Below, piece by piece: positions 4,124 to 60,496 of a stretch of DNA of 64,000 bases. The stretch is from Gemmatimonadota bacterium. Lineage in GTDB: Bacteria; JAAXHH01. The stretch is taken from assembly GCA_009838645.1 (NCBI GenBank), contig VXRC01000045.1, forward strand, positions 1,594-65,593, in the 5' to 3' direction. A program made the position numbers and the translations under genes. The notes under the pieces are model-generated. The model searched no databases and was not told the DNA's origin. It saw nothing but the letters and a program-made list of their open reading frames with translations. The stretch's first letter is position 1, and the number at the start of each line of letters is the position of its first letter.

Positions 4124-4314
4124 TTTCGAGGATCTCCTTTATTGATCATACTGCGATGGCGGCGATTACCTGCGACAGCAGCGATAATCCAGCGACAACA
4201 CCGAAGCGCGAGGACGGATCGGGTCACAATCGGATCACGAAATGAATCGCTAGGCAATGTAGTCATTCCAACCCGCAAAAGCAAGACGCGTTACGTGGTA
4301 TTTCACGTCCTGCT

Positions 4315-5217: not shown

Positions 5218-5378
5218 CGGTTTTATGGTGGCTTGACAGGCACTCGGTGCACGGCTAACTTTTTCTTCCGGAATGCATTTGTTACAAGCATCTCCTTTTG
5301 CGAAAGACAGTCGTATCCAATTCCAGTTTTTCGTATAGCACTGCCCTCATTCCTTCCAACCACCGAAAGGAACCCCCG

Positions 5379-9437: not shown

Positions 9438-9447
9438 TACGGTAAGG

Positions 9448-10290: not shown

Positions 10291-11141
10291 CAGAAGATCT
10301 CCGCGCCGCCCGCCACCACCAGGTCCACGGCCGTGAGGTAGTCCGATTCCGGTGAGGCCAGGAAGGCCACCGTTTGCGCCACGTCGTCGCTCCGGGCCAC
10401 CCGTCCCAGGGGTGAAATACCGGCCTTTTCCTGGATAAACGCCCTGTGGGCTTCGCTGTTCTTCCACGATGTGCCCTGGACGGCGCCGTCGGATACGGCC
10501 TCTTCGATGAATCCCAGGCGCTCGGTATCGACCGCGGTAGGCGATACCGAGTTGACGTTGATCCCGTGGGGACCGAGTTCCTGCGCCAGGGCCTGGGTGA
10601 ACCGGATGATGGCCGCCTTGGACGCGCAGTAGGCCGAGAACCGCTTCCTCCCGATCCTGCCCGACGTGGAGGCGAGGTTGATGATCTTGCCGCCCACACC
10701 CCGCTCGATCATGTGGCGCGCAGCGGCCCGGCACATGAGGAACACGCCCTTTGCGTTGACGTTCATCTCCTTGTCCCAGGCTTCCTCTTCCATGTCGACG
10801 ACGAGCACGCGGTCCTTGCCCGGCAGGGAGCCGGCGCCGTTCACGAGGATGTCGATGCGGCCGAACCGGTCGATCCCCCCGGAAACGAGCCGTTCCACCT
10901 GGTCGGCCTGCGAGACGTCGGCCAGGATGGCCTCCGCGCTGCGCCCCGCCGCCTCGATCTCCCCGACCACGGAGGGCAGCCCCTGCCATTCCGACGAGTC
11001 GCCGGGATAGGGATTTGCGACCCGGTCGCTGACGATGACGTCGGCGCCTTCCTTCGCGAGCCGCGTGGCGACGGCCCGGCCGATGCCACGTTCCCCACCC
11101 GCGCCGGTGACCAGGGCGGTTTTGCCGTGCAGGTTGTACAT
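10290..11141 (-). CDS. SDR-family oxidoreductase
   Basis: Start MYNLHGKTALVTGAGGERGIG (Rossmann TGAGxxxGxG); SAYCASK contains the Yxxx(A)K catalytic motif. Translationally coupled to the SDR at 9448..10290. Confidence 0.8.
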   Translation of the reverse strand: MYNLHGKTALVTGAGGERGIGRAVATRLAKEGADVIVSDRVANPYPGDSSEWQGLPSVVGEIEAAGRSAEAILADVSQADQVERLVSGGIDRFGRIDILVNGAGSLPGKDRVLVVDMEEEAWDKEMNVNAKGVFLMCRAAARHMIERGVGGKIINLASTSGRIGRKRFSAYCASKAAIIRFTQALAQELGPHGINVNSVSPTAVDTERLGFIEEAVSDGAVQGTSWKNSEAHRAFIQEKAGISPLGRVARSDDVAQTVAFLASPESDYLTAVDLVVAGGAEIF

Positions 11142-11208
11142 TATTGACCTTCTGGACGGATCACTCGAGTTCTGTTTCAGACGCTCAGCAGATCTGCGAA
11201 GAAACCAA

Positions 11209-11508
11209 TCACGCCGTAAACCGCACCTGGAGACCCAGGGCACGCACGATACGAACTACCGTGGAGAATGCGGGATTGCCGTCCTCCGACAGTGCTTTGT
11301 ACAACCCTTCCCGGCTCATTCCAATCTCACGGGCCAGCCAGCTCATGTTCCCCGAACGGGCGATATCGTTCAGGGCGGCACGTATCAGGCTGCCATCTCC
11401 TGGATCTTCTTTCGCGCATGCTTCCAGGTAAAGACGAGCGTCTTCCAAGGTGCGCAGGTGCTCCGTCACTTTCCACTTTGAAAATGAAATACTCATTTCC
11501 ACCTCCAA
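11209..11508 (-). CDS. HigA-like 'addiction module antidote' HTH protein (orphan)
   Basis: 99-aa ORF. WKVTEHLRTLEDARLYLEA...IRAALNDIARSGNMSWLAREIGMSREGLYKALSEDGNPAFSTVVRIVRALGL matches the COG3636-type antitoxin family as I remember it. Local GC is lower than the flanks. No RelE/ParE-like partner fits in the 40 bp upstream. Confidence 0.55.
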   Translation of the reverse strand: MEVEMSISFSKWKVTEHLRTLEDARLYLEACAKEDPGDGSLIRAALNDIARSGNMSWLAREIGMSREGLYKALSEDGNPAFSTVVRIVRALGLQVRFTA

Positions 11509-11548
11509 CCTCTCGCCAGCCTGACGGCGTAATCTTGCCCAGTGATCC

Positions 11549-12436
11549 TCACTCGCCCTCTCTCCGCGGCCTCACCACGGTTTCGCCGTCGTCTTCCACG
11601 ATGGGGTGGTGGTAGATGTAGGGCGGTTCCAGCACGGCGCGCTGGGCCTCGGTGAGCTCCGAGGTCCATTCGGGCAGGTTTGTTTCGTAGATGCCGCCGG
11701 CGTAGTGCAGGTACTTGGGCGTGTACCGGTACAGGGCGACCCGCCGGTCGTGCTTGCCGTGCCAGGGCAGGGTGCCGTGGGCGGTGGCCTCGTTGAAAAT
11801 CACCAGGTCGCCGGCCTTCTGTACGATGTGATGGACCAGGTTCTGGTTGGCCTCCCAGGTCAGGATGTCGTCGGGACAGGGGAAGTTTGCCTTGTGGCTG
11901 CCCGGGATGACGCAGAGCCCGCCCGCGCCGAGATCCACGTCCGCCAGGGCGAACTGGCAAACGATAAGCCCCGAGCGCATGCGGCCGTTATGATAGTGGT
12001 AGTAGCGGGATCCGTTGAAAGTCGCGTTACCGGAGCCATGGATCTTTAGCCCCTCGCAACCCGCTTCGGCGACCAGCACGTCGACGCCGTGGTCAAGCTT
12101 CCAGCCGCGGCCGAAGAGGGTGTTGAGATAGGGTATGATCTTCGGATGGGCCAGGAGGTCGCGGAAGGGCTGGCACCAGGGCTGCGGCCAGGTGAGCATG
12201 CCCTCGTAGTGGCGGAAGGGGGCGTACTTGCCTTCGAAGGGCCTGCCCCGCCAGTCGCCGCTGAGTTCGTTGGGTCCGTCGTAGGAACCGAGCCGGTCGG
12301 GATTGGCGTCGAGGGCCGCGTTCAGTGCCTGTACTTCGTCCCCGTCCAGGAAACCGCGCACGTGAAGAAAGCCCTGCAGGTCGTACAGGTACTGTTCCTC
12401 TTCGCTCATGGTGGAAAAGGCCGGCGATTCGGGCAT
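11549..12436 (-). CDS. Phytanoyl-CoA dioxygenase (PhyH) family 2OG/Fe(II) oxygenase, paralog 1
   Basis: Start MPESPAFSTMSEEEQYLYDLQGF with GGGAGGA 6 nt upstream. Contains the VIPGSHK motif and distal His (EATAHGT) typical of PhyH. Confidence 0.7.
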   Translation of the reverse strand: MPESPAFSTMSEEEQYLYDLQGFLHVRGFLDGDEVQALNAALDANPDRLGSYDGPNELSGDWRGRPFEGKYAPFRHYEGMLTWPQPWCQPFRDLLAHPKIIPYLNTLFGRGWKLDHGVDVLVAEAGCEGLKIHGSGNATFNGSRYYHYHNGRMRSGLIVCQFALADVDLGAGGLCVIPGSHKANFPCPDDILTWEANQNLVHHIVQKAGDLVIFNEATAHGTLPWHGKHDRRVALYRYTPKYLHYAGGIYETNLPEWTSELTEAQRAVLEPPYIYHHPIVEDDGETVVRPRREGE

Positions 12437-41488: not shown

Positions 41489-41869
41489 CTACCAGACAGC
41501 CTTCTCGTAAAAACTGCGGAGCACGTTGTCCGAAGTCACCAGCGGGGAGTTGTGCAGAGAAGCCGTGGCTACGATCGTCCGGTCGACAGGATCCCGGTGA
41601 TTCCAATCCAGTTGCAGATTCCTGATCCAGGTACTCAGATCCACGGGCAGTATTTCCACCCGACTGGTTTGCTCCAGGTTTTCCAGGTATTCCCCGCCGG
41701 AAAGTGGCAGTACAAGCCCGCCCCGCTCCACTTTGATCCCGATCTCCCAAATCGATATCGAACTGACGCCTACGCGGTCGGCCTGTGAGATGGCCTGTTC
41801 GGCGGTTTTGGACAGGCGGCCCGGATCCAGCGTCCAGAATATCAGTGAGGACGTATCCAGTACGACCAT
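41489..41869 (-). CDS. vapC: PIN-domain toxin VapC
   Basis: 126 aa. Begins MVVLDTSSLI (beta1 Asp). Also SIWEIG, HRDPVDRTIVATA, LVTSD, the PIN acidic tetrad pattern. Confidence 0.75.
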   Translation of the reverse strand: MVVLDTSSLIFWTLDPGRLSKTAEQAISQADRVGVSSISIWEIGIKVERGGLVLPLSGGEYLENLEQTSRVEILPVDLSTWIRNLQLDWNHRDPVDRTIVATASLHNSPLVTSDNVLRSFYEKAVW

Positions 41870-42099
41870 TACGCTTCATCCCATTCGTCGGTGGTGGGCG
41901 TGTTGATGTCCTCGTGGTAGACGACTTTCCCGCGTAGTTTCTCGAACACCCTGTCAACCGGTTGCTTTGTTCCAATGGGCCGAATGCGCAGCACCGGACG
42001 CCGGTAGTGCGTCACGATCAGCTCCTCACCCGATTCCTCGATTTCCCTGAAGACCTGGAGCATGTTGGCCTTGAGCTTGCTTTTTGAGATGGTCGGCAT
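41869..42099 (-). CDS. Phd/YefM-family antitoxin
   Basis: 76 aa: MPTISKSKLKANMLQVFREIEESGEELIVTHYRRPVLRIRPIG. Its stop overlaps the vapC start. Confidence 0.7.
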   Translation of the reverse strand: MPTISKSKLKANMLQVFREIEESGEELIVTHYRRPVLRIRPIGTKQPVDRVFEKLRGKVVYHEDINTPTTDEWDEA

Positions 42100-42119
42100 G
42101 TGGTCCTCGGGTGATATAA

Positions 42120-42150
42120 AATGACTATGGTCATGTCTATGGTCATATAG
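42120..42150 (-). promoter_or_regulatory. Putative TA-operon operator: two direct repeats CTATGGTCAT 2 nt apart within an AT-rich promoter
   Basis: Sequence gatataaaatgaCTATGGTCATgtCTATGGTCATatag lies immediately upstream of the antitoxin start. Confidence 0.35.
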
Positions 42151-42200
42151 TAAGGTCTGTTTCGATATTCGTCAACCTTAATTAGAGGAGAATCTTAGGA

Positions 42201-43355
42201 CTACACGTCCACGGGCCGCAGATCCAGGGCCAGATCGCGGAAGTCCTTCACCCGGTGGAGGGTGATCAGGTTGGTGTCGTGCTGGTTCTTGCCGCCCCGG
42301 GCGGTGCGGGCGACGACCAGGAGATCGTCTCCGGAGATAACCTGCGAGGCGTAGCTGAAGGACTCCACCATGCTCCTGCTCATGGCCACGCAGCCGGCCT
42401 GGAACCAGTTGAGCGCGTCCACGCTGTACATGAGCATCAGGATGCGCCGCTCGTTGCCCGGGGGACCGCTGAAACCGATGCGGCGAAGGGGTTCCCGGTC
42501 CTGCCACGGGTTGGTGGACAGGGTCACGGTCGTCCAGTACAGGCCATCTTTCTCGTCGTGGACGATCTGGAATTTGCACTGGGCGCCCGGCATGGGGTGG
42601 AACTGGACGAACCGGTAGTCCAGGGTCTCGCCGTCGTCCTCGACTCGGCCGATGGAGGCCAGGCTCGACGTCGTGTGGCCGTCGACGATCGTGCGCATGA
42701 TCATCCGGATCTCGCCGTCCACCCGTACGATGTTGCCTTCCAGGAAGCTGTCGGCCGGCACCTTGTCCTCCCCGCTCTCCGGATACCTTCGTTGAGAAAG
42801 CACGTCCGGGATGCCCGGGAACCGGACGTGGTTGGATATGCGCCAGGCCGCCGGATCGAGCAGATCGCGCGACAGGTCGCCGGCCACCACCAGCGACTTC
42901 CAGTCGAAGCGGCTCGGCGCGTCGCAGGTCTCGAAGGCCCGGTAGGCGTAGCCGTTGTGGATTAGCACCGGCGTGGGCGCACAGTGGTGCCTGCCCTCGA
43001 AGAGCGTGACCGGTCCTTCCCAGGTGAGGCCACCGTCTCGGGATCGGCCGATGACGATATCCCGGCTCCTCCGCCGGTTGCCGATGAGGTAGGCATCGTC
43101 TTCGTAAGACCAGATGGTTGCCCAGATGAAGTCCAGGTTAGCCGCGAGGGTCCACGTGGCGCCGTCGTCGTCGCTGATCAGCACTTCGGTCTGATCCGGC
43201 ACGCGTTCCTTGAGCGGGCTGGGGCGAAACCACTCGTAACTGGCGAGCAGGCGTCCCGAGCGCATCCGGGCGATCGAGGGCGAACCGGCGTACACGTTCT
43301 CCGGATCGGGCGATGAGGCCAAAACGAGGTAGTCGTCGGCGAGCTGTTGGTTCAT
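42201..43355 (-). CDS. BNR/Asp-box repeat protein, sialidase-like (GH33-like beta-propeller), cytoplasmic
   Basis: Asp-box motifs SDDDGATW and SRDGGLTW. No signal peptide. 384 aa. Confidence 0.6.
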   Translation of the reverse strand: MNQQLADDYLVLASSPDPENVYAGSPSIARMRSGRLLASYEWFRPSPLKERVPDQTEVLISDDDGATWTLAANLDFIWATIWSYEDDAYLIGNRRRSRDIVIGRSRDGGLTWEGPVTLFEGRHHCAPTPVLIHNGYAYRAFETCDAPSRFDWKSLVVAGDLSRDLLDPAAWRISNHVRFPGIPDVLSQRRYPESGEDKVPADSFLEGNIVRVDGEIRMIMRTIVDGHTTSSLASIGRVEDDGETLDYRFVQFHPMPGAQCKFQIVHDEKDGLYWTTVTLSTNPWQDREPLRRIGFSGPPGNERRILMLMYSVDALNWFQAGCVAMSRSMVESFSYASQVISGDDLLVVARTARGGKNQHDTNLITLHRVKDFRDLALDLRPVDV

Positions 43356-43583
43356 TTTTCAAGAGCTCCGGGAGGATGAGATGGACAGTCGGTCTGTGGG
43401 ATTGAATATCGATTTTACCGGGAAGGAATGGCCTTGTCAACATAGCCATTGATCTGAACATAGCCCTTGATCTGTTCCGCCCACCTTATGTATCATAGAA
43501 CCGATCACCGAAATCCCCATCGCAATCTTTCTGAATAGTCCGAATTAAAGCAACTGAACCGGGTAAGCCGGGAGGATACGCAC

Positions 43584-44765
43584 ATGGCTGGTAGAACTCA
43601 CCTGTCCCGCAGAGACGTGCTGATCAAGGGAGGAATCGCGACAGCCGGCATGACGCTGCTGCCTTCCCACGTGCTGGCCCAGTTGGACCAACTGGCGCGG
43701 GACGAAACGCCTGTAAACTGGATCGACGAATTCGGGCCGCCCCGAAGCCCCGATTTCGTGCTGCTGGACTGGAATGGCCTGGAGTCGTGGATTACACCCG
43801 TGGAACAGTTTTTCTCGGCCAGCCACTATCCTGAACCGACTGTCGACGGTGATACCTACAGTCTCGAAATCACGGGCGCGGTGAGACAGAGGCTCAACCT
43901 GAGCCTGGAGGAGATCAAATCCATGCCGCGCAGGGACCTCGACTTCACCCTCGAATGCTCGGGCAACCGGGGCGTTCCCGTCTTCCGAGGCGGGGTGTAC
44001 AACGCCCGGTGGACCGGCACGCCGCTGGCGCCGATCCTGGAGCGGGCGGGGATGTGGGATAATGGCATGGAGGTGGTTTTCTTCGGGCATGACGAAGGGG
44101 AGGAGGTCATCACGCCCCGCCGCAGCGAGCCGCTGACCATGAAGCAGAACTTCGCCCGTTCGCTCACCATGGCGCAGGCCATGGACCCGGACATCCTGCT
44201 GTGCTACGAGGTGAACGGCCAGACGCTGCCGCCGAAGCACGGCTACCCCCTGCGCCTTATCGTACCCGGCTGGTACGGGATTACCCAGGTGAAGTGGCTG
44301 AAACGCATCGAAGTGCGCACCACCCGGTACATGGGCCGCTTCATCTCGCGGGATTACGTCACGATCCGCGAGGAGACTCACAACGGAGAGACCGTGTGGC
44401 GCCAGGAGTCCGTGGGCAGAGGCCGCATCAACTCCGTCACGGCGCGGGTCACCCGGGTTGGTCCCCTGCACCGGATCTACGGCGCGGTCTGGGGCGAACC
44501 GCTCAGGGCGGTGCAGGTGCGCATCGACGACGGTCCGTGGCAGACGGCGGAGATCATCGAGGGAGAGGACGCCGAGTACGCCTGGAAGTTCTGGCGCCTG
44601 GACTGGGACCGCCCATCTCCCGGCGAGCATACGATCACGTCGCGGGGCGTAACGACGGCCGGCACGGTGCAGCCGGCGCCGGACGACCCCTACCTGGCCG
44701 GCAAGAAGACCTACTGGGAGAGCAACGGACAGGTAACCCGTACGATACGGACCTTCGAAAGCTAG
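43584..44765 (+). CDS. Sulfite-oxidase-family molybdopterin oxidoreductase with Tat signal
   Basis: Tat motif SRRDVLIKGGIATAGMTLL. Moco-binding region CSGNRGVP...WTGTPL, HGYPLRLIVPGWYGITQVKWLKRIEV. C-terminal dimerisation-like domain. Confidence 0.7.
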   Translation: MAGRTHLSRRDVLIKGGIATAGMTLLPSHVLAQLDQLARDETPVNWIDEFGPPRSPDFVLLDWNGLESWITPVEQFFSASHYPEPTVDGDTYSLEITGAVRQRLNLSLEEIKSMPRRDLDFTLECSGNRGVPVFRGGVYNARWTGTPLAPILERAGMWDNGMEVVFFGHDEGEEVITPRRSEPLTMKQNFARSLTMAQAMDPDILLCYEVNGQTLPPKHGYPLRLIVPGWYGITQVKWLKRIEVRTTRYMGRFISRDYVTIREETHNGETVWRQESVGRGRINSVTARVTRVGPLHRIYGAVWGEPLRAVQVRIDDGPWQTAEIIEGEDAEYAWKFWRLDWDRPSPGEHTITSRGVTTAGTVQPAPDDPYLAGKKTYWESNGQVTRTIRTFES

Positions 44766-45927: not shown

Positions 45928-46914
45928 ATGCACGTCGGCACCCAGCAGTTCAGCACGGCGGACGAAGACCTCGAGTATCTCGCCCGTCACGGCGTTTTCA
46001 ACAAGAACGAGAACAACATCACCTTTCACCGCGAATACGGTTGGGACGTGGAGGAACTGGCGGCGAAGAAGGAGAAGTGCGCCCGGTTCGGGATCGACAT
46101 GGAGATGGTGGCGCTTCCCATCGCCCAGTTCAACGTGGACGGCGGCCAGGTGCCCAACTACATGCTGGGCAACTACGAAGAGGGCGACAAGGAAATCGAG
46201 CTGGTCTGCAACATGGTGCGCCAGGCCGCGGAAGCGGGTATCCCCGCGATCAAATACTACCTGTGCGAGATGGAGAACCAGCGCACCGAGAGCGATCCGC
46301 CCGGCCGCGGGGGGTCGATCTACAGCACCTGGCACCTGGAGAAGGCGAAGGACCGGCCGGCCAGGTACGACGAGCCCGTGACCGCCGAGATGAACTGGGC
46401 CCGCATCACCTACTTCCTGGAGCGGGTGATCCCCGTGGCGACGGAGTGCAAGGTCCGCATGGCCTGCCATCCCTGCGACCCGTGGCTGCCGCCCGGGTAC
46501 CGGTGCGTGGACCGTGTGCTGGGTGGCTTCGATGGTTTCATGCAGTTCATCGAGATCTGCCCCAGCCCCTATCACGGCGTCAACCTCTGCCTGGGCTGCA
46601 TGGCGGAGAGTTCTCTCGATCCCCTCAACGAGGTGCCGGACATCATCCGTTACCTCGGATCGCGCAAGAAGATCTTCCTCTGCCACTTCCGCAACATCGT
46701 GGGCGGGCGCAACAAGTTCCAGGAGGTCTGGCCGGACGAAGGCGTGATGAACATGCACCGCAACATGCAGGCGCTCAAGGAGGTCGGCTACGATCACATG
46801 TGCGTGCCGGACCACGCGCCGGGACACAAGGATCCGGACAGCTACCGGCAGGCCTTCGCCTACGAGTTCGGCTACATCCGGGCCATGATCCAGGCCGTGA
46901 TGGACAAGGGGTAG
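45928..46914 (+). CDS. UxuA-like (mannonate dehydratase family) TIM-barrel protein
   Basis: Blocks resembling E. coli UxuA: AGIPAIKYYLCEMENQRTE, VATECKVRMACHPCDP, IFLCHFRN, CVPDHAPGH. Family assignment from memory. Confidence 0.5.
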   Translation: MHVGTQQFSTADEDLEYLARHGVFNKNENNITFHREYGWDVEELAAKKEKCARFGIDMEMVALPIAQFNVDGGQVPNYMLGNYEEGDKEIELVCNMVRQAAEAGIPAIKYYLCEMENQRTESDPPGRGGSIYSTWHLEKAKDRPARYDEPVTAEMNWARITYFLERVIPVATECKVRMACHPCDPWLPPGYRCVDRVLGGFDGFMQFIEICPSPYHGVNLCLGCMAESSLDPLNEVPDIIRYLGSRKKIFLCHFRNIVGGRNKFQEVWPDEGVMNMHRNMQALKEVGYDHMCVPDHAPGHKDPDSYRQAFAYEFGYIRAMIQAVMDKG

Positions 46915-47036
46915 GGCCACCCGGTTCTTCAGAATATACTCAACCATCTAATCGGTATTTGACCGGCAATAGCTTGTCGAAATACGTTGCCACGTATGTT
47001 TTAATTTCAAACAATATATCGAATATTATTGACAAT

Positions 47037-47065
47037 CATGTTCGATTTTTGTATATGTTCTATTA
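47037..47065 (+). promoter_or_regulatory. Near-consensus sigma70 promoter TTGACA-N17-TATATG upstream of islet 1's first gene
   Basis: ttgacaatcatgttcgatttttgtatatg, then GAGGGAGGTGAGTA-ATG (strong SD) at 47106. Confidence 0.35.
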
Positions 47066-47105
47066 CGTATCGCCAACCGATCCACCACTGCGAGGGAGGT
47101 GAGTA

Positions 47106-48338
47106 ATGGATCTCAGAGAGCTCGGACAAAGACTGCGTTATGCGCGGGAGTTCAGGGGGCTCAGTCAACAGGCGACAGCGAAAGCCATTGGTGTGACAAG
47201 AACGGCAATTACTCAGATGGAGTCCGGTAACCGGTCAGTTTCGACACTGGAACTGTCAAAACTCGCTGAGTGTTTTAGACGACCGATAAGCTACTTTTTT
47301 CAGGAGACTACCGAGGAAGAAGATATACTAATCTCGCTATACCGAATTGCACCTAATTTGAAAAGCAATCGTGCAATTCGAAATCGAGTTGGTCAGTGCC
47401 TAGACCTCTTTCGAGAAGGCTTGGCCATGAAAAAGATCCTCGGTATAGAATCCCGTGCAGGTCTACCCGTGTATGATATTCAACCCCCTCGAACCAGAGG
47501 CGATGCTATTACCCAGGGCAATAAGGCTGCTACAGAAGAGAGGCGTCGGTTAGGCATAGGTGAGTCTCCGATTCACAATATCACGGAGCTAATTGTGTCG
47601 CAGGGAATCTGGGCTTCCGATGCAAAACTGCCACAAGAGATGTCGGGACTTTTTGTTAATCATAGCTCATTTGGATTGGCGATTGTCGTTAACTCAGATC
47701 ATTCGCGAGGTCGGAAACAGTTTTCCTATGCACATGAATATGCCCATGCACTTATGGACAGGGATGGGAATCTAGCGGTCTCCAGTAGAGAAAACTCGTC
47801 CGAACTGGTGGAAGTACGAGCAAACGCATTTGCCGCGTCTTTTTTAATGCCTGCAGGAGGCGTATACGAAGAACTAAAGGACTTGGATACGGATTTCCCT
47901 TACCAAAGGGTTCATACCGTATACGATGCTGCCCGTGGAGAGCCATTAGAAGGAGTCATACGTACGTCACCAAGTTCGCGTGGCGTGACCTATAAAGACG
48001 TGGCGAAAATAGCACATCGTTTTGGGGTTAGTTATCAGGCAGCACTATATCGAATGAAAAGTCTAAGGATAGTATCTGACCAGGAAATGGACCGTCAGAT
48101 GGCATTAGAAGATCTAGGTAAGGAGTTTCTCAATGAGTTAAGCGATTCCGAAAGTGTAGAAAGAAGGGATTTGAAAAAACCATCTGATCGAGAACTGCGC
48201 TTTGAAGTGGCTGGTCTTGCAATTGAGGCCTTCCGAAGAGATTGTATCTCCCAAGGCCGACTTCTAGAACTAAGTAAGTTGCTAAAAATAGATGGTCAGC
48301 AATTTATCGACTTTGCATTGAAGGCGCGTGGGAATTGA
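47106..48338 (+). CDS. Fusion of XRE-family HTH and ImmA/IrrE (M78) zinc metallopeptidase domains
   Basis: N-terminal HTH LRYAREFRGLSQQATAKAIGVTRTAITQMESGNR. HExxH in FSYAHEYAHALMD. 410 aa. Confidence 0.75.
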   Translation: MDLRELGQRLRYAREFRGLSQQATAKAIGVTRTAITQMESGNRSVSTLELSKLAECFRRPISYFFQETTEEEDILISLYRIAPNLKSNRAIRNRVGQCLDLFREGLAMKKILGIESRAGLPVYDIQPPRTRGDAITQGNKAATEERRRLGIGESPIHNITELIVSQGIWASDAKLPQEMSGLFVNHSSFGLAIVVNSDHSRGRKQFSYAHEYAHALMDRDGNLAVSSRENSSELVEVRANAFAASFLMPAGGVYEELKDLDTDFPYQRVHTVYDAARGEPLEGVIRTSPSSRGVTYKDVAKIAHRFGVSYQAALYRMKSLRIVSDQEMDRQMALEDLGKEFLNELSDSESVERRDLKKPSDRELRFEVAGLAIEAFRRDCISQGRLLELSKLLKIDGQQFIDFALKARGN

Positions 48339-48340
48339 AA

Positions 48341-48862
48341 ATGTGTATGGTGAAAAACAAGCCCAAGATCGTAATGGATTCAACAGTGATAGTCAGTCTA
48401 TTACGTACAGATCGCTTAGCAATATTCAGCCGATTTGCCCACGGTCGTCTGCTGATAACAAACCATGTATTAGTGGAGATAACAAACTGTTTCCCCGATC
48501 AATTGAAGTCATTTGAGTATCTGGTTGATCGCGGGATTTTAAAGCAGATCTCTGTCAGTAACAAGGACGAACTGTTGGTGTTCCGTGATCTATGTAAACT
48601 AAACACGTTGGGTATTGGTGAATGCGCTGCCATTGCGGTTGCTGTAACAGGAAATCGAATCTTGGCGATAGATGGTAGATGTGCCTCAAGTCAAGCCAGA
48701 AGGATGCAACCAGATCTTCGCATTTTAAGCACCAAGAATCTAATGGATACTTTGCTTAAGAATAACGTGATGGATGAAAACAGACTCAAGACAGCATTAA
48801 ATGCACCATTTAATACGAGTTCCGACCGACCCCCAAACACAGGCGTCGTGGAGTCTTCTTAG
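48341..48862 (+). CDS. PIN-like domain protein (resembles DUF3368/COG2405-type PIN nucleases)
   Basis: KIVMDSTVIV (beta1 Asp), VLVEIT, LGIGECAAIAVAV...LAIDGR pattern. ATG lies 3 nt after the stop of the HTH-ImmA gene. An alternative TTG start at 48335 overlaps that stop. Confidence 0.5.
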   Translation: MCMVKNKPKIVMDSTVIVSLLRTDRLAIFSRFAHGRLLITNHVLVEITNCFPDQLKSFEYLVDRGILKQISVSNKDELLVFRDLCKLNTLGIGECAAIAVAVTGNRILAIDGRCASSQARRMQPDLRILSTKNLMDTLLKNNVMDENRLKTALNAPFNTSSDRPPNTGVVESS

Positions 48863-48928
48863 ATTGTCAACTGTTTACCTTTTGAAGTCAGTCTGATTAG
48901 AAACCATTGACTCGGTAGATGACAAATT

Positions 48929-49849
48929 ATGCCCGATAGCAAAAAGTTTTACGTTCTTGCTTTGGATGGTGGCGGTACAAGAGGGGTATATTCCGCGCAA
49001 CTTCTTTCCAAGCTTGAAACGACATTGGGACGTAGTATCAGAGACTGTTTCCATCTTATAGCTGGATCAAGCACCGGTTCAATTGTAGCGGGTGCGGCTG
49101 CAACAGGTATAAAGATGGAAAAAACCGTTGGTTTTTTTGAGAAATCGGCCAAAAGGGTATTCAAGAAACGTTTTTATCGATGTGGATTAACAAAAAGTAA
49201 GTACCGAAATGAGCAACTTAGGGAAGTTATTACAGATTCACTTCCTTCAATAACTCTTGGCGAAATTGAAACACCGCTGATGATAACTGGTTCCGATACG
49301 AGTACCGGCAAAGCGAGGGTATTCAAGTCAAGATACTTAAAGCAACTTGGAGAACCTTACGTAATGGATGGGAACTTGCTATTGAGCAAAGTGATTCTAG
49401 CTTCGTGTTCCGCACCAACATTTTTCGATCCAACAGATATCGATGGTCATCTAGTTGTCGATGGCGGTCTCTGGGCTAACAATCCTTCGATCATATCGCT
49501 TTCCGAAGCTATTTCGAAATTCAACAGGGAGGTAAAAGATGTCAAAATCCTATCCATAGGGACAGGACAGAAAACCGAAAGCATATACGCTAGACAGAAG
49601 CACTGGGGATTACTTACAGGATGGGGTGGGGTCAAACTCGTTACGTATTTCCTTGACCTGCAGTCTCAAGCTTCCAAGAACATGGCCGAGTTAGTCCTTG
49701 GTAACAACTATCTTCGTCTTAACCCATCGATAGGAGACTGGAACCTGGACGATACAGAGCACTTGGAAAACCTACGGTCTCTTGCTGACATGGATTACTC
49801 GTACAATGTAGATGCAATAAAAGCTTTTACAATTCCCGATGGAGGTTAA
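48929..49849 (+). CDS. Patatin-like phospholipase (CapV-like candidate effector)
   Basis: Oxyanion hole LDGGGTRG, nucleophile elbow AGSSTG (GxSxG), and catalytic Asp in VVDGGLWANNP. Confidence 0.85.
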   Translation: MPDSKKFYVLALDGGGTRGVYSAQLLSKLETTLGRSIRDCFHLIAGSSTGSIVAGAAATGIKMEKTVGFFEKSAKRVFKKRFYRCGLTKSKYRNEQLREVITDSLPSITLGEIETPLMITGSDTSTGKARVFKSRYLKQLGEPYVMDGNLLLSKVILASCSAPTFFDPTDIDGHLVVDGGLWANNPSIISLSEAISKFNREVKDVKILSIGTGQKTESIYARQKHWGLLTGWGGVKLVTYFLDLQSQASKNMAELVLGNNYLRLNPSIGDWNLDDTEHLENLRSLADMDYSYNVDAIKAFTIPDGG

Positions 49850-49851
49850 AA

Positions 49852-51471
49852 ATGAAACATCCTCAATACTTTGTTGATTTCCTAAAAAATGAAGTCAACC
49901 TGAATCCGGATAGGCTTGAAACACTCAAAAGTAGGTCTAGTGCAGTAGGTAAATACCTGCGCGACAACCTGGGTTTATATCGAAAGACGGAACGACAGGG
50001 ATCGTATGCTACTGAAACGATAATTAAACCAGTTAACAATCATGAATATGACGCAGACTTGCTTCTTTACATGAAGTATGATGCGGACAAAGTACCTCGG
50101 GAATACATAGAGGATGTTTACAGTTGCCTGAAGAAGAATAAAACCTACAAGGATAAGATCCACAGAAAGACCCACTGCGTTATAATTGACTATACAGGGG
50201 ATTTCCATCTGGATCTCGTCCCTTGTATTGAAAGCAACGGTAGCTCATATGTGTGTAACAGACAGACTAACAAGTACGAACTCACAGATGGGACTGGTTA
50301 TAGGGACTGGTTCATTGGTAAATCCAGAAAGACAAATGGTCACTTAAAACGAGTGGTAAGATTGCTGAAGTACCTAAGGGACATTAAGCAGACCTTTTCA
50401 ATACCCTCGATTGTATTGACGACTCTTGTCGCAAGGGAAGTACTAGAGTGGGGTGACGAGAACCGCTATAGTGATATTCCAGAAACATTGAAAACAATAT
50501 CTAATAGGATCAACGGTTTTCTACAAGCCAACCACTACTTACCTTCAATCGCTAATCCCGTCATTCCATCAGAAAACCTCGCCACAAACTGGAGCCAAGA
50601 TCAGTATACGAACTTCAGAAGCAAATTCGATCTATACAATAGTAAAATCAATGATGCTTACGCTGAAAATGACCACAACGAAAGTGTTAAAAAATGGCGA
50701 AGTGTTTTCGGTGAGAAATTCGGTAAGCTTAATGGTACAAACACGTACAGGAGTGCATTGGGTACTACAGGAATTACCTCATCCGTGACCCCTAGGAAGC
50801 AGCACGCTGGTTTGCACGAGATTGCCAGAGAATTCCCACTTAATGATAACCAGATACAGAGATTATTGGACCAGTTTCCACGTTTACGTTATGAACCAGA
50901 ACCAAAAAGGATCGTCGGTGGAATTGACTTCTGCGCCTATTACGACACAAAGTCGGGGAAACTTGAAATTGGCGACTTAGAAGATGCACGAACACATCCT
51001 CTGTTTATTTGCGATAGTTATGAAATCAAAATATGCTTGAATTCTGTGGATCTAAATGGCTGGCCAGCTGTTTATGAATCTGGTGGCAGACATTACGAGA
51101 TTGCTACCCGGTACAGAATACCTGAAGTTGATCTACATTTCTATCCGAATAGTGGTGCCTGCTGTCTTGGAATAAGAAGATCACGTCCAAGTACACGATT
51201 TGATGTCATACAGTTTGTAGCTGACCTGGTTATCCCGTTTCTATACCGACTTTCTTATGTAGATAAGTTCGGGTTGGAAGCTGCACGTAGGGATCTTTGG
51301 GGTGAGTATTCCCATTCGGATGGTATACAGGAGTATATAACAGAAATGTTAGTATACGCTGGTAAAAACCCAGGACGGAATACCAGTTGTCCGTGCGGAA
51401 GTGGAAAGAAATACAAAAACTGCCATATGAATGAGGTAGAGCATACATTGAATGCAGTAAATAGCCTGTGA
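49852..51471 (+). CDS. SMODS/CD-NTase-like nucleotidyltransferase with C-terminal extension of about 200 aa ending in a SEC-C zinc motif
   Basis: Pol-beta NTase motifs RQGSYATETIIKPVNNHEYDADLLLYM (GS...DxD) and third acidic residue in DFHLDLVPC. Downstream IPSIVLTTLVAREV resembles the CD-NTase hpShhLEhL helix. C-terminus SCPCGSGKKYKNCH. GGAGG sits 6 nt upstream, and the gene starts 3 nt after the patatin stop. Confidence 0.6.
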   Translation: MKHPQYFVDFLKNEVNLNPDRLETLKSRSSAVGKYLRDNLGLYRKTERQGSYATETIIKPVNNHEYDADLLLYMKYDADKVPREYIEDVYSCLKKNKTYKDKIHRKTHCVIIDYTGDFHLDLVPCIESNGSSYVCNRQTNKYELTDGTGYRDWFIGKSRKTNGHLKRVVRLLKYLRDIKQTFSIPSIVLTTLVAREVLEWGDENRYSDIPETLKTISNRINGFLQANHYLPSIANPVIPSENLATNWSQDQYTNFRSKFDLYNSKINDAYAENDHNESVKKWRSVFGEKFGKLNGTNTYRSALGTTGITSSVTPRKQHAGLHEIAREFPLNDNQIQRLLDQFPRLRYEPEPKRIVGGIDFCAYYDTKSGKLEIGDLEDARTHPLFICDSYEIKICLNSVDLNGWPAVYESGGRHYEIATRYRIPEVDLHFYPNSGACCLGIRRSRPSTRFDVIQFVADLVIPFLYRLSYVDKFGLEAARRDLWGEYSHSDGIQEYITEMLVYAGKNPGRNTSCPCGSGKKYKNCHMNEVEHTLNAVNSL

Positions 51472-51514
51472 TATTTCTGAGAAATAAGGCTAAGATACTT
51501 CCGGAGTATTAAAA

Positions 51515-52312
51515 GTGATCTCAAAACGCATACTACCCGGCGAGCGCCTCGACGACGCCCAAATGGACGTGATTCTCGAGGACTTTTGCAGGAATGGTGT
51601 CACCCTCATTCCCGGGGTGCTGACGAGGGAAGAAATCGACGCACTCCGCGAGGTCACGGACCGTTGCTTCAACGATCCCGTCCTGGCCGGCACCGATTAC
51701 TTGAGCGGCCAGGGAGACGGATTCGTGCTGCGGAACACGCTGGAGCTGGACGCGGTGTTCGTGGACATGCTGATCCGTGAACCCATCCTGAGCCTGGCCG
51801 AGGCGGTCGTGGGGGAGGACTGCAAGTTCTGCGGTCAGAACGTGATCCGCAACGCGCCGGGACAGGCGATCGATCTGTGGCACGTGGACGACCGGGTGGA
51901 GTTCCCGCTGCCGGACGACGTGCCCCGCCACGACCCACGCATCCGCATGCCCGTGCAGTGGTTCACCATCCAGATGGCGCTCACCGACATCGACACGGTC
52001 GAGGACGGCCCGACGCAGTTCGTCCCGGGCAGCCACTATTCCGGCAGGGACCCCAACAGCCAGGAAAACCCCGAGTTCGATGGACGAGGGCCGGTATCGG
52101 TCTTCTGCAAGGCAGGAGACGTCTACCTGCAGAACAACCAGTGCTGGCACCGGGGTGCGCCGGTTACGTCGAACCGGATGCGCTACGTCTTCCAGTCCCA
52201 GTATGCCGCCCGCTGGGCCCACCGGCGATTTTCCGAATACCACCACGTTCCCGTACCGCCCACGGTGCTGTCCCGGGCGTCCGACCGGTTGCGCGGCGTG
52301 CTGGGCGTGTGA
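51515..52312 (+). CDS. PhyH-family dioxygenase, paralog 3 (GTG start)
   Basis: HxD in LWHVDDRVE, FVPGSHYS, distal His NQCWHRGAP. High GC resumes here. Confidence 0.65.
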   Translation: MISKRILPGERLDDAQMDVILEDFCRNGVTLIPGVLTREEIDALREVTDRCFNDPVLAGTDYLSGQGDGFVLRNTLELDAVFVDMLIREPILSLAEAVVGEDCKFCGQNVIRNAPGQAIDLWHVDDRVEFPLPDDVPRHDPRIRMPVQWFTIQMALTDIDTVEDGPTQFVPGSHYSGRDPNSQENPEFDGRGPVSVFCKAGDVYLQNNQCWHRGAPVTSNRMRYVFQSQYAARWAHRRFSEYHHVPVPPTVLSRASDRLRGVLGV

Positions 52313-58657: not shown

Positions 58658-58713
58658 GCCGGCGACAAACGTGGTGTTGCAGTTAGCCAGTAACTAAAAA
58701 GCGGATATTGCAA

Positions 58714-60072
58714 ATGGATCTACGCAAACTAATCTTGGAAGACGTGAGATGTTTCGGCGGACGTCAAGAATTCGACATCCGGCCAATTACGTTTTTAGTT
58801 GGTGAGAATAGCACTGGTAAGTCCACTGCGCTTGGCTGTTTTCAAATTATCCATGATTTCATTTTTAGTAATGAAATTGGATTGAATTTCAACGTGGAAC
58901 CATATTCGATGGGTTCGTTTACGGACATCGTTAGGAGGTCTAGACCCGGTAAGACTCATTTTCGGATCGGCGTCGGATTTCAATCAGAATCATCACAAAG
59001 CGATCTGGAGTACATGCTGGTACTTTCAGCTAAAAACCGTGGATCCGAGCCAACCATACAAGAGCAGAACGTCCGTATGTCGAAAGGTGAGGTTACGTTT
59101 ATCGAAAGATCAGCTGGAGATGGTGTAGATGGCATGCAATCAGAGTACTTAAAAGGATTTGAAATAACTGATCCTCCATCTAAGGAAGGTTTTCAGAAAA
59201 CTACTGTTGTATCTGGAAGGTACCACTTGGACAAAACAGTCTTGGATTTACTGTTACCGATCAATAGATACCGACATTTGACGGCCAAGTGGCGTCCAGA
59301 GTCCATGCACGTCTTGGTTAATCTCGGCGAAAAACCTCCCGGACCCTTCGGCGGAGATTGGAATAAGTTGTTTGGGAAAGATCACTTGCTTCCATCTGAA
59401 GCATATAGTTTTGCTCCGATAAGAACTAATCCATTACGTACCTACGATCCATTAAGGGAAGATATGGATCCTGCCGGCAGCGACATCCCCATGGTTATCA
59501 GGAACATGTTTATAACCGAAAGAGACAGATGGGAAAAACTCAAAGGAAACCTTGTCGCATTCGGCAAATCATCAGGATTGTTTTCTGATGTCAATGTGAG
59601 AGTACTTGGCAATTCCTCAGGTGACCCGTTTCAAATACAGATTAAGGTAAATGGCCCCAAAGTGAATATGAAAGATGTAGGACATGGAGTGAGCCAGATT
59701 CTTCCAATACTTGTACGTATACTCGACAGTCCTCGGAACATGGTTTTCCTGATGCAGCAACCTGAGGTCCATCTGCATCCTAAGGCACAGTCAGAGTTGT
59801 CGTCTATTCTCGTTGAAGCAGTAAAGCAAAAGAAACATAGATTCGTCATAGAAACACATAGCGATCACCTGGTAAATCGGGCGCGAATCGAAATCATGAA
59901 AGGAACAATCGATCCACAGGATGTTTCGCTGATATACCTTGAACCTGTTGGTAACCGGGTCAGTGTCCATAACATTCAGTTTGATAAACTGGCGAATCTG
60001 TTGAATGTTCCTCAAGGATATAGGGATTTTTTCATCGATGAATCGGATAAGCTACTCGGTTTATCCAAGTGA
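58714..60072 (+). CDS. AAA_21/OLD-like family ATPase (abortive-infection-type ABC-like ATPase)
   Basis: Walker A FLVGENSTGKST. Walker B/D-loop MVFLMQQPEVHLHP. H-loop IETHSDH. Lies in low-GC islet 2. An alternative TTG start is at 58708. Confidence 0.75.
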   Translation: MDLRKLILEDVRCFGGRQEFDIRPITFLVGENSTGKSTALGCFQIIHDFIFSNEIGLNFNVEPYSMGSFTDIVRRSRPGKTHFRIGVGFQSESSQSDLEYMLVLSAKNRGSEPTIQEQNVRMSKGEVTFIERSAGDGVDGMQSEYLKGFEITDPPSKEGFQKTTVVSGRYHLDKTVLDLLLPINRYRHLTAKWRPESMHVLVNLGEKPPGPFGGDWNKLFGKDHLLPSEAYSFAPIRTNPLRTYDPLREDMDPAGSDIPMVIRNMFITERDRWEKLKGNLVAFGKSSGLFSDVNVRVLGNSSGDPFQIQIKVNGPKVNMKDVGHGVSQILPILVRILDSPRNMVFLMQQPEVHLHPKAQSELSSILVEAVKQKKHRFVIETHSDHLVNRARIEIMKGTIDPQDVSLIYLEPVGNRVSVHNIQFDKLANLLNVPQGYRDFFIDESDKLLGLSK

Positions 60073-60082
60073 AAGTGGAGAC

Positions 60083-60496
60083 ATGTGTCTTATCTTGGAT
60101 GCAAATAAGTTTAGTGATTACTTGAACCCCGAAGATGAAAACATGGAACCAGTTAGAAGGTGGATGAAATCCAAAGGTAAATTGGTTTACTCTCCAACAG
60201 AGAAACTAAAGCAGGAGTTAGACAGGCATAAAAAGATGAGACTGCAGATTGACGAATACCGCAAAAACGGTAGTCTTAAACAATATCCTGCACAAGAAGT
60301 TGAAAGGGTTAAAGACAGGTTACCCTCATTACAGTCAGATGATCCTGATATTATCGCTTTAGCACAAGTAGCAGAAGTTGGCCTGTTGGTTTCAGGTGAT
60401 ACTGACTTGCATGCGGATTTCAAAGCAGTAATTGGAGGGAGTGTGTATCAGACGAGAAAACACAGCCGCTTGTTGAGAAGAGATACCTGTCCTTGA
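60083..60496 (+). CDS. Small PIN/TOPRIM-like putative nuclease partner of the ATPase
   Basis: MCLILDANKF (N-terminal Asp), SPTEKL, DPDIIALAQVAEVGLLVSGDTDLHADF (C-terminal acidic motif). Begins 10 nt after the ATPase stop. An alternative in-frame start at 60038 would overlap the ATPase. Confidence 0.4.
   Translation: MCLILDANKFSDYLNPEDENMEPVRRWMKSKGKLVYSPTEKLKQELDRHKKMRLQIDEYRKNGSLKQYPAQEVERVKDRLPSLQSDDPDIIALAQVAEVGLLVSGDTDLHADFKAVIGGSVYQTRKHSRLLRRDTCP

Follow-up and report, generated by a model that had tools for sequence, protein, structure and literature searches.

The window (i.e., the whole 64,000-nt stretch of Gemmatimonadota DNA that was analyzed) contains an islet of low GC content between a UxuA-like gene (45,928–46,914) and a PhyH gene (51,515–52,312). 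In 400-nt windows, GC content was 0.39–0.48 from ~46,900 to ~51,500 and 0.60–0.68 on either side, with 0.65 regained by 51,600, which bears out the abrupt fall in base composition around a 4.6-kb block reported in an earlier note on this DNA; in 1-kb bins, the lowest GC content of the 64-kb window was that of the islet, together with another patch located at 59–60 kb. The islet contains, as also reported, four tightly spaced, co-oriented genes, all on the + strand: g1 (47,106–48,338; 410 aa), g2 (48,335–48,862; 175 aa), g3 (48,929–49,849; 306 aa), and g4 (49,852–51,471; 539 aa). The reading frames of g1 and g2 share 4 nt (an alternative ATG start for g2, at 48,341, is located 2 nt past g1), and g2 is translationally coupled to g1; g2 and g3 are separated by 66 nt (41 nt in the related locus L003), while the spacing between g3 and g4 is 2 nt and not 3 nt as initially given. 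No terminator-like sites were found within the islet (0 vs. ~4 expected). Between g2 and g3, neither a terminator-like site nor a σ70-like promoter was detected with a σ70 scan that lacks validation for Gemmatimonadota, and the 3′ end of g2 may house an internal promoter. Judged by its gene content, the islet is a genuine four-gene anti-phage locus.

The first gene, g1, encodes an XRE-HTH domain (aa 10–64; Pfam HTH_3, 3.7e-13) and an M78/ImmA/IrrE-type zinc peptidase domain (aa 167–263, with HEYAH at 210; Pfam Peptidase_M78, 2.3e-18), followed by a C-terminal region of ~150 aa. This protein matched the PADLOC models for RmrA (8.7e-31, the best match), capP (9.2e-18), and capH (1.9e-07), suggesting that it is like a CapH–CapP fusion or like RmrA; more than 2,500 clusters of g1 homologues presented a length of 410–412 aa. 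Relating g1 to CapH/CapP, as previously proposed, is reasonable: M78-type regulators recur beside this CBASS subfamily. By direct sequence reading, we identified a putative g1 promoter/operator (47,007–47,057, + strand) with a −35 element (TTGACA, 47,029–47,034), a 17-nt spacer, and a −10 element (TATATG, 47,052–47,057). A TGTTCGA half-site (47,039–47,045) is located in the spacer and an inverted half-site, TCAAACA (47,007–47,013), is located upstream; the inverted repeat was also detected as such, and no second operator was found inside the islet. These elements are kept in five syntenic relatives, and the pattern TTGACA-N4-5-TGTTCGA-N5-7-TATAxT also precedes g1 homologues of unrelated bacteria across phyla; this conservation supports TGTTCGA as a candidate operator over g1's own promoter, to which g1 would bind.

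The second gene, g2, encodes a PIN-like protein of the COG2405/DUF3368 family (precomputed Pfam PF11848), which matched the PADLOC candidate PDC-S70 (5.4e-07 for g2 in the window, 5.2e-20 and 5.6e-14 for g2 of relatives) and none of the PADLOC RmrT models. In alignments, three acidic residues (E48, E96, and D113) do not vary, and D15 is replaced only in L003, by Glu. A g2 profile search found a g2 copy after each full-length (410–412 aa) g1 homologue examined; g1–g2 is thus a conserved pair (HTH–M78 plus DUF3368 PIN-like). Overall, the neighbors of this pair include CBASS types I–III, 6a/6e systems, and restriction-like genes. Individual pairs adjoin type III CBASS (L169, L175), type I CBASS (L112), 6a (L173), 6e (L172), and DUF2188/MTase-helicase genes (L170), while L167 and L174 present no recognizable defence neighbor, indicating that the pair can stand alone. 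The systematic adjacency of g1–g2 to other defence operons suggests a regulatory role beyond that of a simple toxin–antitoxin (TA) module.

Comparison by blastn with L003, L166, L167, and L168 showed that DNA synteny with the host flanks stops at the g1 stop codon; the hypervariable segment (g2 plus cargo, 48,339–51,514) has as its exact limits the stop codon of g1 and the start codon of PhyH. Relatives at this site keep g1 and differ in g2 and cargo; the cargo is CBASS in the window and L003, a methyltransferase–HNH gene (600–604 aa) in L166 and L168, and nothing in L167. The block is therefore not a single 4.6-kb insertion, as had been proposed, since g1 is a fixed resident in five related genomes and only g2 and the cargo vary.

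The third gene, g3, encodes a protein with GGGTRG, GSSTG, and DGG motifs (at 14, 46, and 178, respectively) that matched Pfam Patatin (3e-28) and the PADLOC CBASS phospholipase effector (3.7e-80), and that passes the NCBIfam model CBASS_lipase (“CBASS cGAMP-activated phospholipase”; 226 bits vs. a curated cut-off of 200); g3 is predicted to be a CapV-type patatin phospholipase acting as CBASS effector. The CBASS identity that had been assigned to the locus is confirmed by this cut-off and by the PADLOC CBASS cyclase match of g4 (1.7e-115). Pfam matches of g4 include SMODS (1.1e-29), DncV-like NTFase (7.7e-11), and SEC-C (2e-08). Its CD-NTase domain (aa 1–295; 49,852–50,736, + strand) is supported by PADLOC, PDB sequence matches (CD-NTases, including SmCdnG), and Foldseek (CD-NTases for all of the top 50 hits), and its catalytic residues G50-S51, D67, D69, and D121 represent invariant columns. 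The long extra C-terminal domain noted previously is indeed present and was identified as E2-like plus SEC-C. The E2-like (UBC-fold) domain (aa 332–505; 50,845–51,366, + strand), supported by HMM, by its fold, and by its homologues among stand-alone CBASS E2 genes, contains H429-F-Y-P-N, C437-C438-L-G (C438 codon at 51,163–51,165), and H488; H429, C438, and H488 show no variation across the 112 fusions, suggesting that catalysis is under selection. It is followed by a SEC-C zinc knuckle (C513-P-C515 … C524-H525; 51,376–51,429, + strand), for which PDB matches were SecA C-terminal peptides and whose Cys/His ligands are kept in 111 of the 112 fusions. The g3–g4 pair is an E2-only (“type II short”) CBASS in which cyclase and E2 are fused, an architecture that is widespread (112 of the 120 best homologue clusters of g4 are fused) and already noted in earlier literature. 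Separate patatin, cyclase, and E2-SEC-C genes are found in the close relatives L001, L006, L086, and L090, and g4 resembles unfused relatives more closely than it does the large fused group, in its cyclase half as well as in its E2 half, suggesting that fused and split forms interconvert and presumably work in the same way.

An alignment of the 112 fused and 8 unfused relatives revealed a tail motif in g4, P314-R-K-Q-H-A319 (50,791–50,808, + strand). Unfused cyclases end with …PRKPYA-X, seven of the eight stopping one residue past Ala; in 104 of the 112 fused proteins the motif is internal, lies as far from the cyclase core as the actual chain end does in unfused relatives, and is followed by a hypervariable linker. 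P314 and A319 are conserved in 95% and 94%, respectively, and both AF2 models present an ordered tail lying against the E2 domain (pLDDT ~84 and 92), with disordered flanks. The Serratia marcescens enzyme SmE2 removes the residues that follow the C-terminal Gly of its cyclase, or a GFP fused there, and forms a thioester/isopeptide (published work; mLife 2026). PRKQHA is thus a predicted E2 recognition and cleavage site, and its internal retention suggests self-cleavage and thioester formation by the fusion. The predicted conjugation residue in fusions is Ala, or Ser in a few, while characterized systems have Gly. The g4 cyclase also lacks the “E2-binding motif” of a helix and three strands that E2-associated CdnG is reported to have, so recognition may differ. 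Our literature search on the internal tail motif, the SEC-C end, and experiments on any fused cyclase–E2 found none described.

We consider it probable (roughly 0.6) that the islet is one operon joining a regulator module to an E2-type CBASS and working as follows. Bound to the TGTTCGA operators over its own σ70-like promoter, g1 would hold a co-transcribed g1-g2-g3-g4 low; upon DNA damage or in the presence of phage-derived ssDNA, its peptidase domain would cut the HTH part and induce the operon, by analogy with CapP/CapH, IrrE/DdrO, and ImmA/ImmR. The E2 domain (C438, H429, H488) would then cut the g4 chain after Ala319, in cis or between copies, and would form a cyclase~E2 thioester and subsequently isopeptide links, as with the separate Serratia CdnG and E2, so that cyclase activity may be primed or tuned without E1. 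CapV patatins are activated by cyclic nucleotides and kill via the membrane; the g4 product would activate g3 in this way, leading to membrane destruction and abortive infection. The PIN-like nuclease g2, always found with g1, is most likely a toxin/effector restrained by g1, as in Rosmer-like TA systems.

A tentative alternative is that two independent defence modules share a hotspot, with g1–g2 representing a Rosmer-like TA/abortive-infection pair (ImmA-protease/HTH antitoxin and PIN toxin) and the CBASS genes having their own promoter, outside g1 control. This would fit the best match of g1 to RmrA, the stand-alone status of PDC-S70 among PADLOC defence candidates, the prediction of HTH–DUF955 plus COG2405 PIN genes as TA modules, the pairing of the ImmA antitoxin hub with PIN-like toxins, the presence of g1–g2 in L167 and L174 without another defence gene, and the free exchange of cargo beside the pair; in addition, no M78 gene is located near 40 of the 47 (~85%) CBASS loci of this clade. 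However, M78 regulators recur specifically upstream of E2/SEC-C-type CBASS in independent genomes, as split CapH/CapP-like genes (L177) or HTH-M78 plus DUF3368 (L178) before other patatin and cyclase–E2 operons, and before the unfused E2 operons L006, L086, and L090. The neighbors of g1–g2 are operon types that Lau et al. list as shown or proposed to be under CapH/CapP-like regulators, which favors g1 as a regulator, and the lack of RmrT matches for g2 and of terminator- or promoter-like sites in the g2–g3 gap also speaks against independent modules. Against the single-operon reading, the operon under regulation diverges from g1 in nearly every relative; in the window, CBASS is downstream and co-directional, so control would depend on read-through from the g1 promoter. 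The independent-module and single-operon readings are not mutually exclusive.

As for g4, we regard it as possible, if doubtful, that the fusion is never cleaved, its peptide bond being a hard-wired tether that replaces the covalent conjugate, with an E2 Cys that works exclusively in trans, toward other copies or different targets, or with an E2 domain whose role is purely structural or regulatory. The authors of mLife 2026 take natural CD-NTase–E2 fusions as a hint of a covalent cyclase-E2 unit, the full-length AF2 model presented two well-folded domains with a flexible linker (pTM 0.57), and Ala/Ser in place of Gly at the tail would agree with such a tether; against it stand the invariant H429, C438, and H488, the placement of the tail at the unfused C-terminal distance before a hypervariable spacer, the removal by SmE2 of a whole GFP placed after the tail, and the apparent interconversion of fused and split forms. 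Far less probable is the minimal type I CBASS (capV-dncV) of the earlier note, taken here with a cyclase whose extra C-terminal domain would be a sensor; patatin followed by cyclase after a 2-nt gap does represent the capV-dncV order, and sister cyclases (440–480 aa) of the same clade have a different C-terminal domain that is not E2 and are paired with patatin in operons of two genes, but this layout is refuted by the E2-like domain of g4, and published classification places cyclase-associated E2 in type II (E2-only) CBASS.

The earlier statement that no described layout matches the locus goes too far. Lau et al. (2022) reported CapH–CapP fusions in 15 CBASS systems and in one DISARM operon, where the fusion adjoins a “vapC-like gene”; Matelska (2017) predicted three-component TA modules in which a COG2405/DUF3368 PIN gene comes after an HTH–DUF955 fusion; the ImmA/Rosmer zone of Ernits (2023) likewise includes HTH–DUF955 and PIN pairs; and CD-NTase–E2 fusions, which as summarized in mLife 2026 have the same domain architecture as g4, are credited there to Burroughs (2015). 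Each component having a described relative, the locus is a variant of interest and not a new kind of system. Like CapH/CapP, g1 combines an XRE HTH with an M78/DUF955 zinc peptidase, and the associated systems are shared (CBASS types I–III, 6a, 6e, DUF2188, and DISARM-like operons); unlike CapH/CapP, g1 is located upstream on the CBASS strand with a PIN gene in between, and no divergent promoter is shared with CBASS. RosmerTA and the HTH–DUF955 plus PIN (COG2405/DUF4411) modules (Millman 2022; Matelska 2017; Ernits 2023) present the two-gene layout of g1–g2, in which a small toxin-like gene comes after that of an HTH-peptidase, and the ImmA hub has documented PIN-like partners; in contrast to RosmerTA, g2 matches only PDC-S70, its toxin role is putative, and the pair is systematically found beside other defence operons. 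The E2-CBASS of S. marcescens (CdnG–E2; PDB 8hsb/8yjy; Yan et al. 2024; mLife 2026) likewise consists of a CD-NTase and a small E2-like enzyme without E1 or JAB protein. Both share a His…Cys…His arrangement (H429/C438/H488 in g4, H87/C101/H152 in SmE2) and a small residue that is conserved close to the C-terminal end of the cyclase and precedes residues that are trimmed (predicted for g4), while SmE2 was not reached from the g4 E2 profile by sequence alone. By comparison with the Serratia system, g4 combines cyclase and E2 in one polypeptide, has Ala (PRKQHA) instead of Gly at the tail, carries a SEC-C zinc knuckle on its E2, and lacks the helix/β-sheet E2-binding motif; its cyclase, unlike CdnG, has patatin-linked cyclases (PADLOC PDLC00793/00787) as nearest sequence relatives, and the effector is a patatin in the window and 2TM-SAVED in Serratia.

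A block of low GC content with sharp edges (GC 0.39–0.48, as compared to 0.60–0.68 on either side) extends from ~46.9 to 51.5 kb of the window, between a UxuA-like gene and a PhyH gene. Four open reading frames, all on the + strand, fill this islet: g1 (47106-48338), encoding a protein with HTH_3 and Peptidase_M78 domains; g2 (48335-48862), encoding a PIN-like protein that matches PADLOC PDC-S70; g3 (48929-49849), encoding a patatin; and g4 (49852-51471), encoding a protein with Pfam matches to SMODS, a DncV-like NTFase, and SEC-C. The genes g1 and g2 overlap by 4 nt, a gap of 66 nt separates g2 from g3, and only 2 nt separate g3 from g4. An earlier note, made from the sequence alone, had described an abrupt low-GC block with four co-oriented, tightly spaced genes; the GC calculation and gene layout bear this out, and all sequence motifs quoted there were recovered in the islet proteins. 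The note's view that the layout is undescribed needs correcting, given the CapH–CapP fusions of Lau et al., the cyclase–E2 fusions credited to Burroughs et al., and the predicted HTH–DUF955/PIN toxin–antitoxin (TA) systems; the islet is put together from known modules, and it is their co-directional layout that is unusual.

The CBASS identity proposed for g3 and g4 agrees with the model matches of both cyclase and effector. The cyclase part of g4 matches SMODS (1.1e-29) and, over its first 312 residues, a PADLOC cyclase model (1.7e-115); it adopts the CD-NTase fold, and its catalytic residues (G50, S51, D67, D69, and D121) are invariant and conform to the GS…[DE]xD…D pattern. The patatin encoded by g3 scores 226 bits against NCBIfam CBASS_lipase (curated cut-off 200) and 3.7e-80 against the PADLOC CBASS effector model; g3 is the predicted CBASS effector, which the nucleotide signal would activate. 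The same note had assigned the module to type I and had left the long C-terminal domain of the nucleotidyltransferase without a name. The domain is indeed present, but it is identifiable as an E2: residues 332-531 of g4 match three PADLOC CBASS E2 models (2.4e-21, 5.6e-17, and 4e-13), and the core H429-F-Y-P-N…C437-C438-L-G is followed by a SEC-C zinc knuckle. Type I systems consist of cyclase and effector and are free of ancillary regulators of the E1/E2/JAB or HORMA/Trip13 kind, whether as genes or as domains, which the fused E2-like domain contradicts, while a cyclase-associated E2-like protein with a catalytic Cys, as found here, is what characterizes E2-CBASS. Neither E1 (ThiF-like) nor JAB/Cap3 matches were found in any of the four islet genes. 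Because the C-terminal domain of g4 is an E2, g3–g4 is an E2-only ("type II short") CBASS rather than type I.

Many sister cyclases of the same clade (440-480 aa; e.g., L093, L099, L103, and L112, L114, all loci in other genomes) carry a different C-terminal domain of ~130-170 aa and usually lie in a two-gene operon with a patatin. That these extensions might also be E2 domains was considered and rejected, as these cyclases match PADLOC cyclase model PDLC00793 over the whole of its length, extension included, and no E2 model matches them.

The cyclase–E2 fusion is a common architecture, found in 112 of the best 120 homologue clusters, and H429, C438, and H488 are invariant in all 112 fused homologues. 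A structural model of g4 residues 308-539 was of high confidence (pLDDT 90.6, pTM 0.89). An assembly or frameshift artefact could also join two reading frames; this explanation was rejected, since the identical protein is encoded on three contigs and the architecture is shared by the 112 clusters. A hypothetical protein annotated in a Gemmatimonadetes MAG has exactly the g4 sequence. According to the mLife 2026 paper, CD-NTase–E2 fusions were first noticed by Burroughs et al. (2015). Close relatives of the g4 cyclase exist without the fusion, as proteins of 313-329 aa that share 55–61% identity with its NTase part. At locus L001, such an unfused cyclase has a separate gene of 234 aa directly behind it, whose product is 45% identical to the g4 C-terminal domain (2e-62) and matches the same PADLOC E2 models; the split order patatin, cyclase, E2-SEC-C also occurs in L006, L086, L090, L091, and L092. 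For both halves of g4, unfused relatives are nearer than the main group of fusions, which means that fusion or fission occurred more than once. In a scan of genome contigs, the 20-aa SEC-C motif dominated the matches when the alignment was used at full length (one true relative, L006, among 80 loci), and the metagenome scan was rerun with a trimmed alignment; a PDB profile search with the E2 domain reached only SEC-C peptides. The unfused operon of L086 contains two E2-SEC-C genes (4934-5596 and 8978-9703), one ~2 kb upstream and one directly after the cyclase, which match the window E2 domain at 5e-68 and 1e-67, with an M78 gene further upstream. Some stand-alone E2s (the C-termini of those in L001 and L086) have two tandem SEC-C knuckles; g4 has one.

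In seven of eight unfused cyclases, a single residue follows a C-terminal …P-[RKP]-K-[PLF]-Y-A motif; in the eighth, seven residues follow the Ala. In the fusions this tail motif is retained internally (PRKQHA319 in g4; 104 of 112 fused proteins, with A319 conserved in 94% and P314 in 95%) and is followed by a spacer variable in length and sequence and then by the E2 domain. Both AF2 models show the PRKQHA tail as an ordered short strand (pLDDT ~84 and 92) with disordered residues on either side. In Serratia marcescens, SmE2, the stand-alone E2 partner of the cyclase CdnG, is a cysteine protease that cuts off the residue behind a conserved Gly of the cyclase, or even a GFP fused there, and then forms a thioester at C101 as well as isopeptide links, among them chains of cyclase to cyclase (Yan et al. 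2024; mLife 2026). Read from the retained tail motif, its order in the AF2 models, and the SmE2 precedent, the simplest interpretation is that the natural fusions would undergo self-cleavage behind the Ala, with loading of the cysteine in their own E2 domain. Of the type II branches, E2-only CBASS is understood least, including how the E2 recognizes, trims, and conjugates the cyclase, and natural fusions with an internal cleavage motif offer a simple one-protein system in which cleavage, thioester formation, and the Ala-for-Gly replacement are addressable in a single construct; self-processing of the single-chain cyclase–E2 is a point worth testing.

The protein encoded by g1 (HTH_3 3.7e-13, Peptidase_M78 2.3e-18, HEYAH at residue 210) matches the PADLOC models capP (9.2e-18) and capH (1.9e-07) as well as fifteen models of RmrA, its top-scoring family (best 8.7e-31, over aa 8-256); its nearest PDB relative is 9vzy. 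Its family comprises proteins of 410-412 aa, with >2,500 clusters at ≤1e-20. A PIN-like gene encoding ~150-240 aa follows the g1 homologue in every full-length g1 context examined, including L168 and L174, where the annotation had not called it. A word-indexed homologue search with g2 returned only g2 itself and a PDB profile search with g2 returned nothing; relatives were gathered from the surroundings of g1 homologues and with a profile built locally. Conserved D/E/E/D motifs run through the alignment of the g2-like proteins, which match the PADLOC defence-island candidate PDC-S70 (down to 5.2e-20); g2 itself keeps the PIN-like acidic residues and, among PADLOC models, matches PDC-S70 only, with no match to RmrT models. 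The HTH-M78 and PIN pair appears to be one very large family, which the literature places under two names, a Rosmer-like TA and a CapH–CapP fusion: the pair fits the predicted HTH–DUF955 plus COG2405 PIN "three-component TA" (Matelska 2017) and the ImmA/Rosmer zone of TA networks (Ernits 2023), and Lau et al. reported 15 CBASS systems with a CapH–CapP fusion, besides one fusion in a DISARM operon, where a vapC-like gene is adjacent.

Beside homologous g1-g2 pairs of independent genomes we found type III CBASS (L169 and L175, the latter also with a type ISP restriction enzyme), a patatin type I CBASS (L112), a 6a E2/JAB system (L173), a 6e multi-ubiquitin and E1 system (L172), and DUF2188 together with methyltransferase, helicase, and nuclease genes (L170); no recognisable system was found in L167 and L174. 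Lau et al. tied CapH/CapP-like regulators to these same operon types. Upstream of E2/SEC-C-type CBASS operons, M78 regulators recur; they include a split CapH/CapP-like pair (L177) and an HTH-M78 gene with DUF3368 (L178), and M78 genes are also found there in L006, L086, and L090; across the wider cyclase clade, an M78 regulator is present at 7 of 47 CBASS loci. In L178, the patatin and cyclase–E2 operon lies in a defence island (1-2207 and 10008-11626) that also contains an AbiEii gene, a REase-ARP/PDDEXK gene, and a gene for a >1,140-aa protein uniting Prok-E2_A, ThiF, Prok-JAB, and Patatin domains.

Upstream of g1 (window 47007-47057), we identified a putative promoter (TTGACA–17 nt–TATATG) whose spacer includes TGTTCGA, while TCAAACA lies 32 nt upstream as an inverted half-site; these elements are kept in five syntenic relatives. 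The arrangement TTGACA-N4-5-TGTTCGA-N5-7-TATAxT, with a second half-site 30–42 nt upstream, also precedes the g1 homologues of L169 (Amorphus), L170 (Sphingopyxis), L173, L174, and L175, and a Rhizobium plasmid (L171) carries the variant TGTCCGA. In L169 and L175, the predicted operator lies in the intergenic region common to the divergent CBASS operon. Such conservation between Gemmatimonadota and the homologues of L169, L170, L173, L174, and L175 is unusual for a repressor operator. In the window, TGTTCGA overlaps the g1 promoter. Because no second site was found before g3 in the g2–g3 gap and no terminator-like site was found in the islet (~4 expected), control of the CBASS genes by g1 would be exerted via read-through from the g1 promoter, a plausible but hypothetical route.

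The earlier note read the islet as a single insertion between the UxuA-like and PhyH genes and proposed a search for an allele in which these two genes abut. No empty site was found among the five syntenic relatives, all of which carry g1. DNA homology with L003, L166, L167, and L168 spans the host genes and g1, stops at 48,336-48,340, at the g1 stop codon, and resumes at 51,515/6, at the PhyH start codon. Between these points, the window and L003 carry the patatin and cyclase–E2 genes, L166 and L168 carry a methyltransferase–HNH gene encoding 600-604 aa, and L167 carries a 72-aa ORF alone. Measured against the window at this one site, host genes share 89–98% amino acid identity, g1 63–81%, the CBASS proteins ~65%, and g2 33–42%. 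The marks of a mobile genomic island (integrase or transposase, att repeat or tRNA target, and empty site) are missing: none of the four islet genes encodes a recombinase, no flanking direct repeats were found, and the sole tRNA is 40 kb away, with no tRNA target near the islet. Rather than arising from one insertion, the islet is a locus whose content is hypervariable.

The methyltransferase of L166 (7030-8844, − strand) and L168 (6883-8685, − strand) is fused to a weakly matching HNH_4 domain and has a weak PADLOC mad2 match (2.6e-11); it may represent an uncharacterised single-gene defence or modification system. Also in L166, the UxuA-like gene beside g1 (3814-4808) is called in two pieces (275 and 55 aa, as compared to 328 aa elsewhere), which could reflect a frameshift or sequencing error. 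Elsewhere in the window, a second low-GC islet (58708-60496, within a patch at ~57-61 kb; GC down to 0.44) lies between two PhyH-like genes and contains a gene for a 454-aa AAA_15/AAA_21 ABC-type ATPase (PADLOC NsnB 7.2e-45, PDC-M55A 2e-41, and AriA 5.2e-22) and a 163-aa ORF that lacks annotation; this islet is probably a further small defence cargo. Smaller GC dips (0.52-0.57) at 41600-42400 and 43200-43800, upstream of a molybdopterin-oxidoreductase-like gene, are probably intergenic or regulatory regions.

Taken together, these results are compatible with a more far-reaching joint reading to which we give roughly one chance in three (0.35). The g4 protein would be a self-processing zymogen, a whole E1-free ubiquitin-like conjugation system in one polypeptide: much as ubiquitin is freed from its fusion precursors, it would cut itself after Ala319 and thereby load the cysteine of its E2 domain. 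For the g1-g2 pair, the reading proposes a portable docking module that senses damage and whose TGTTCGA operator spans phyla; recombination, with the g1 stop codon as the exact boundary here, would swap downstream or divergent defence cargo beside it, and the PIN-like g2 would co-diversify as a second effector or toxin. The operator, PIN-partner, and cargo-exchange results may shed light on how genomes come to exchange defence cargo when no recombinase is involved. A cross-phyla operator, a near-constant PIN partner, and cargo exchange at one site also give handles on whether the pair acts as regulator, as toxin system, or in both ways; its role as regulator or anchor for exchangeable defence cargo is worth testing.

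Compared with known systems, the tail position and trimming pattern predicted for g4 are analogous to those of the E2-CBASS cyclase C-terminus, but the residue differs: where E2-CBASS cyclases have a conjugated C-terminal Gly, g4 has Ala319 (94% Ala and a few Ser among the fused proteins), internal through the fusion. The helix/sheet motif by which CdnG is described to bind its E2 is also absent from the g4 cyclase, and E1-independent cleavage and covalent cyclase–E2 linkage in g4 are predicted by analogy. The g1 protein combines the HTH and M78 peptidase of an RmrA-type antitoxin of RosmerTA, and equally the XRE-type HTH and M78/DUF955 zinc peptidase with HExxH of CapH/CapP. In RosmerTA, RmrA neutralises the toxicity of a neighbouring RmrT; in CapH/CapP systems, the promoter region of the controlled operon contains an operator, cleavage of the HTH protein is stimulated by ssDNA or DNA damage, and the peptidase carries a GAF domain at its C-terminus. 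The proposal that an HTH and ImmA-type peptidase act as CBASS regulators is consistent with these domains and the capH/capP matches, and gene placement in the window differs: CapH/CapP lie upstream on the opposite strand, while g1 is on the same strand as the CBASS genes with g2 between them. The opposite-strand upstream placement of CapH/CapP is found in the relatives L112, L169, L173, L175, L177, and L178.
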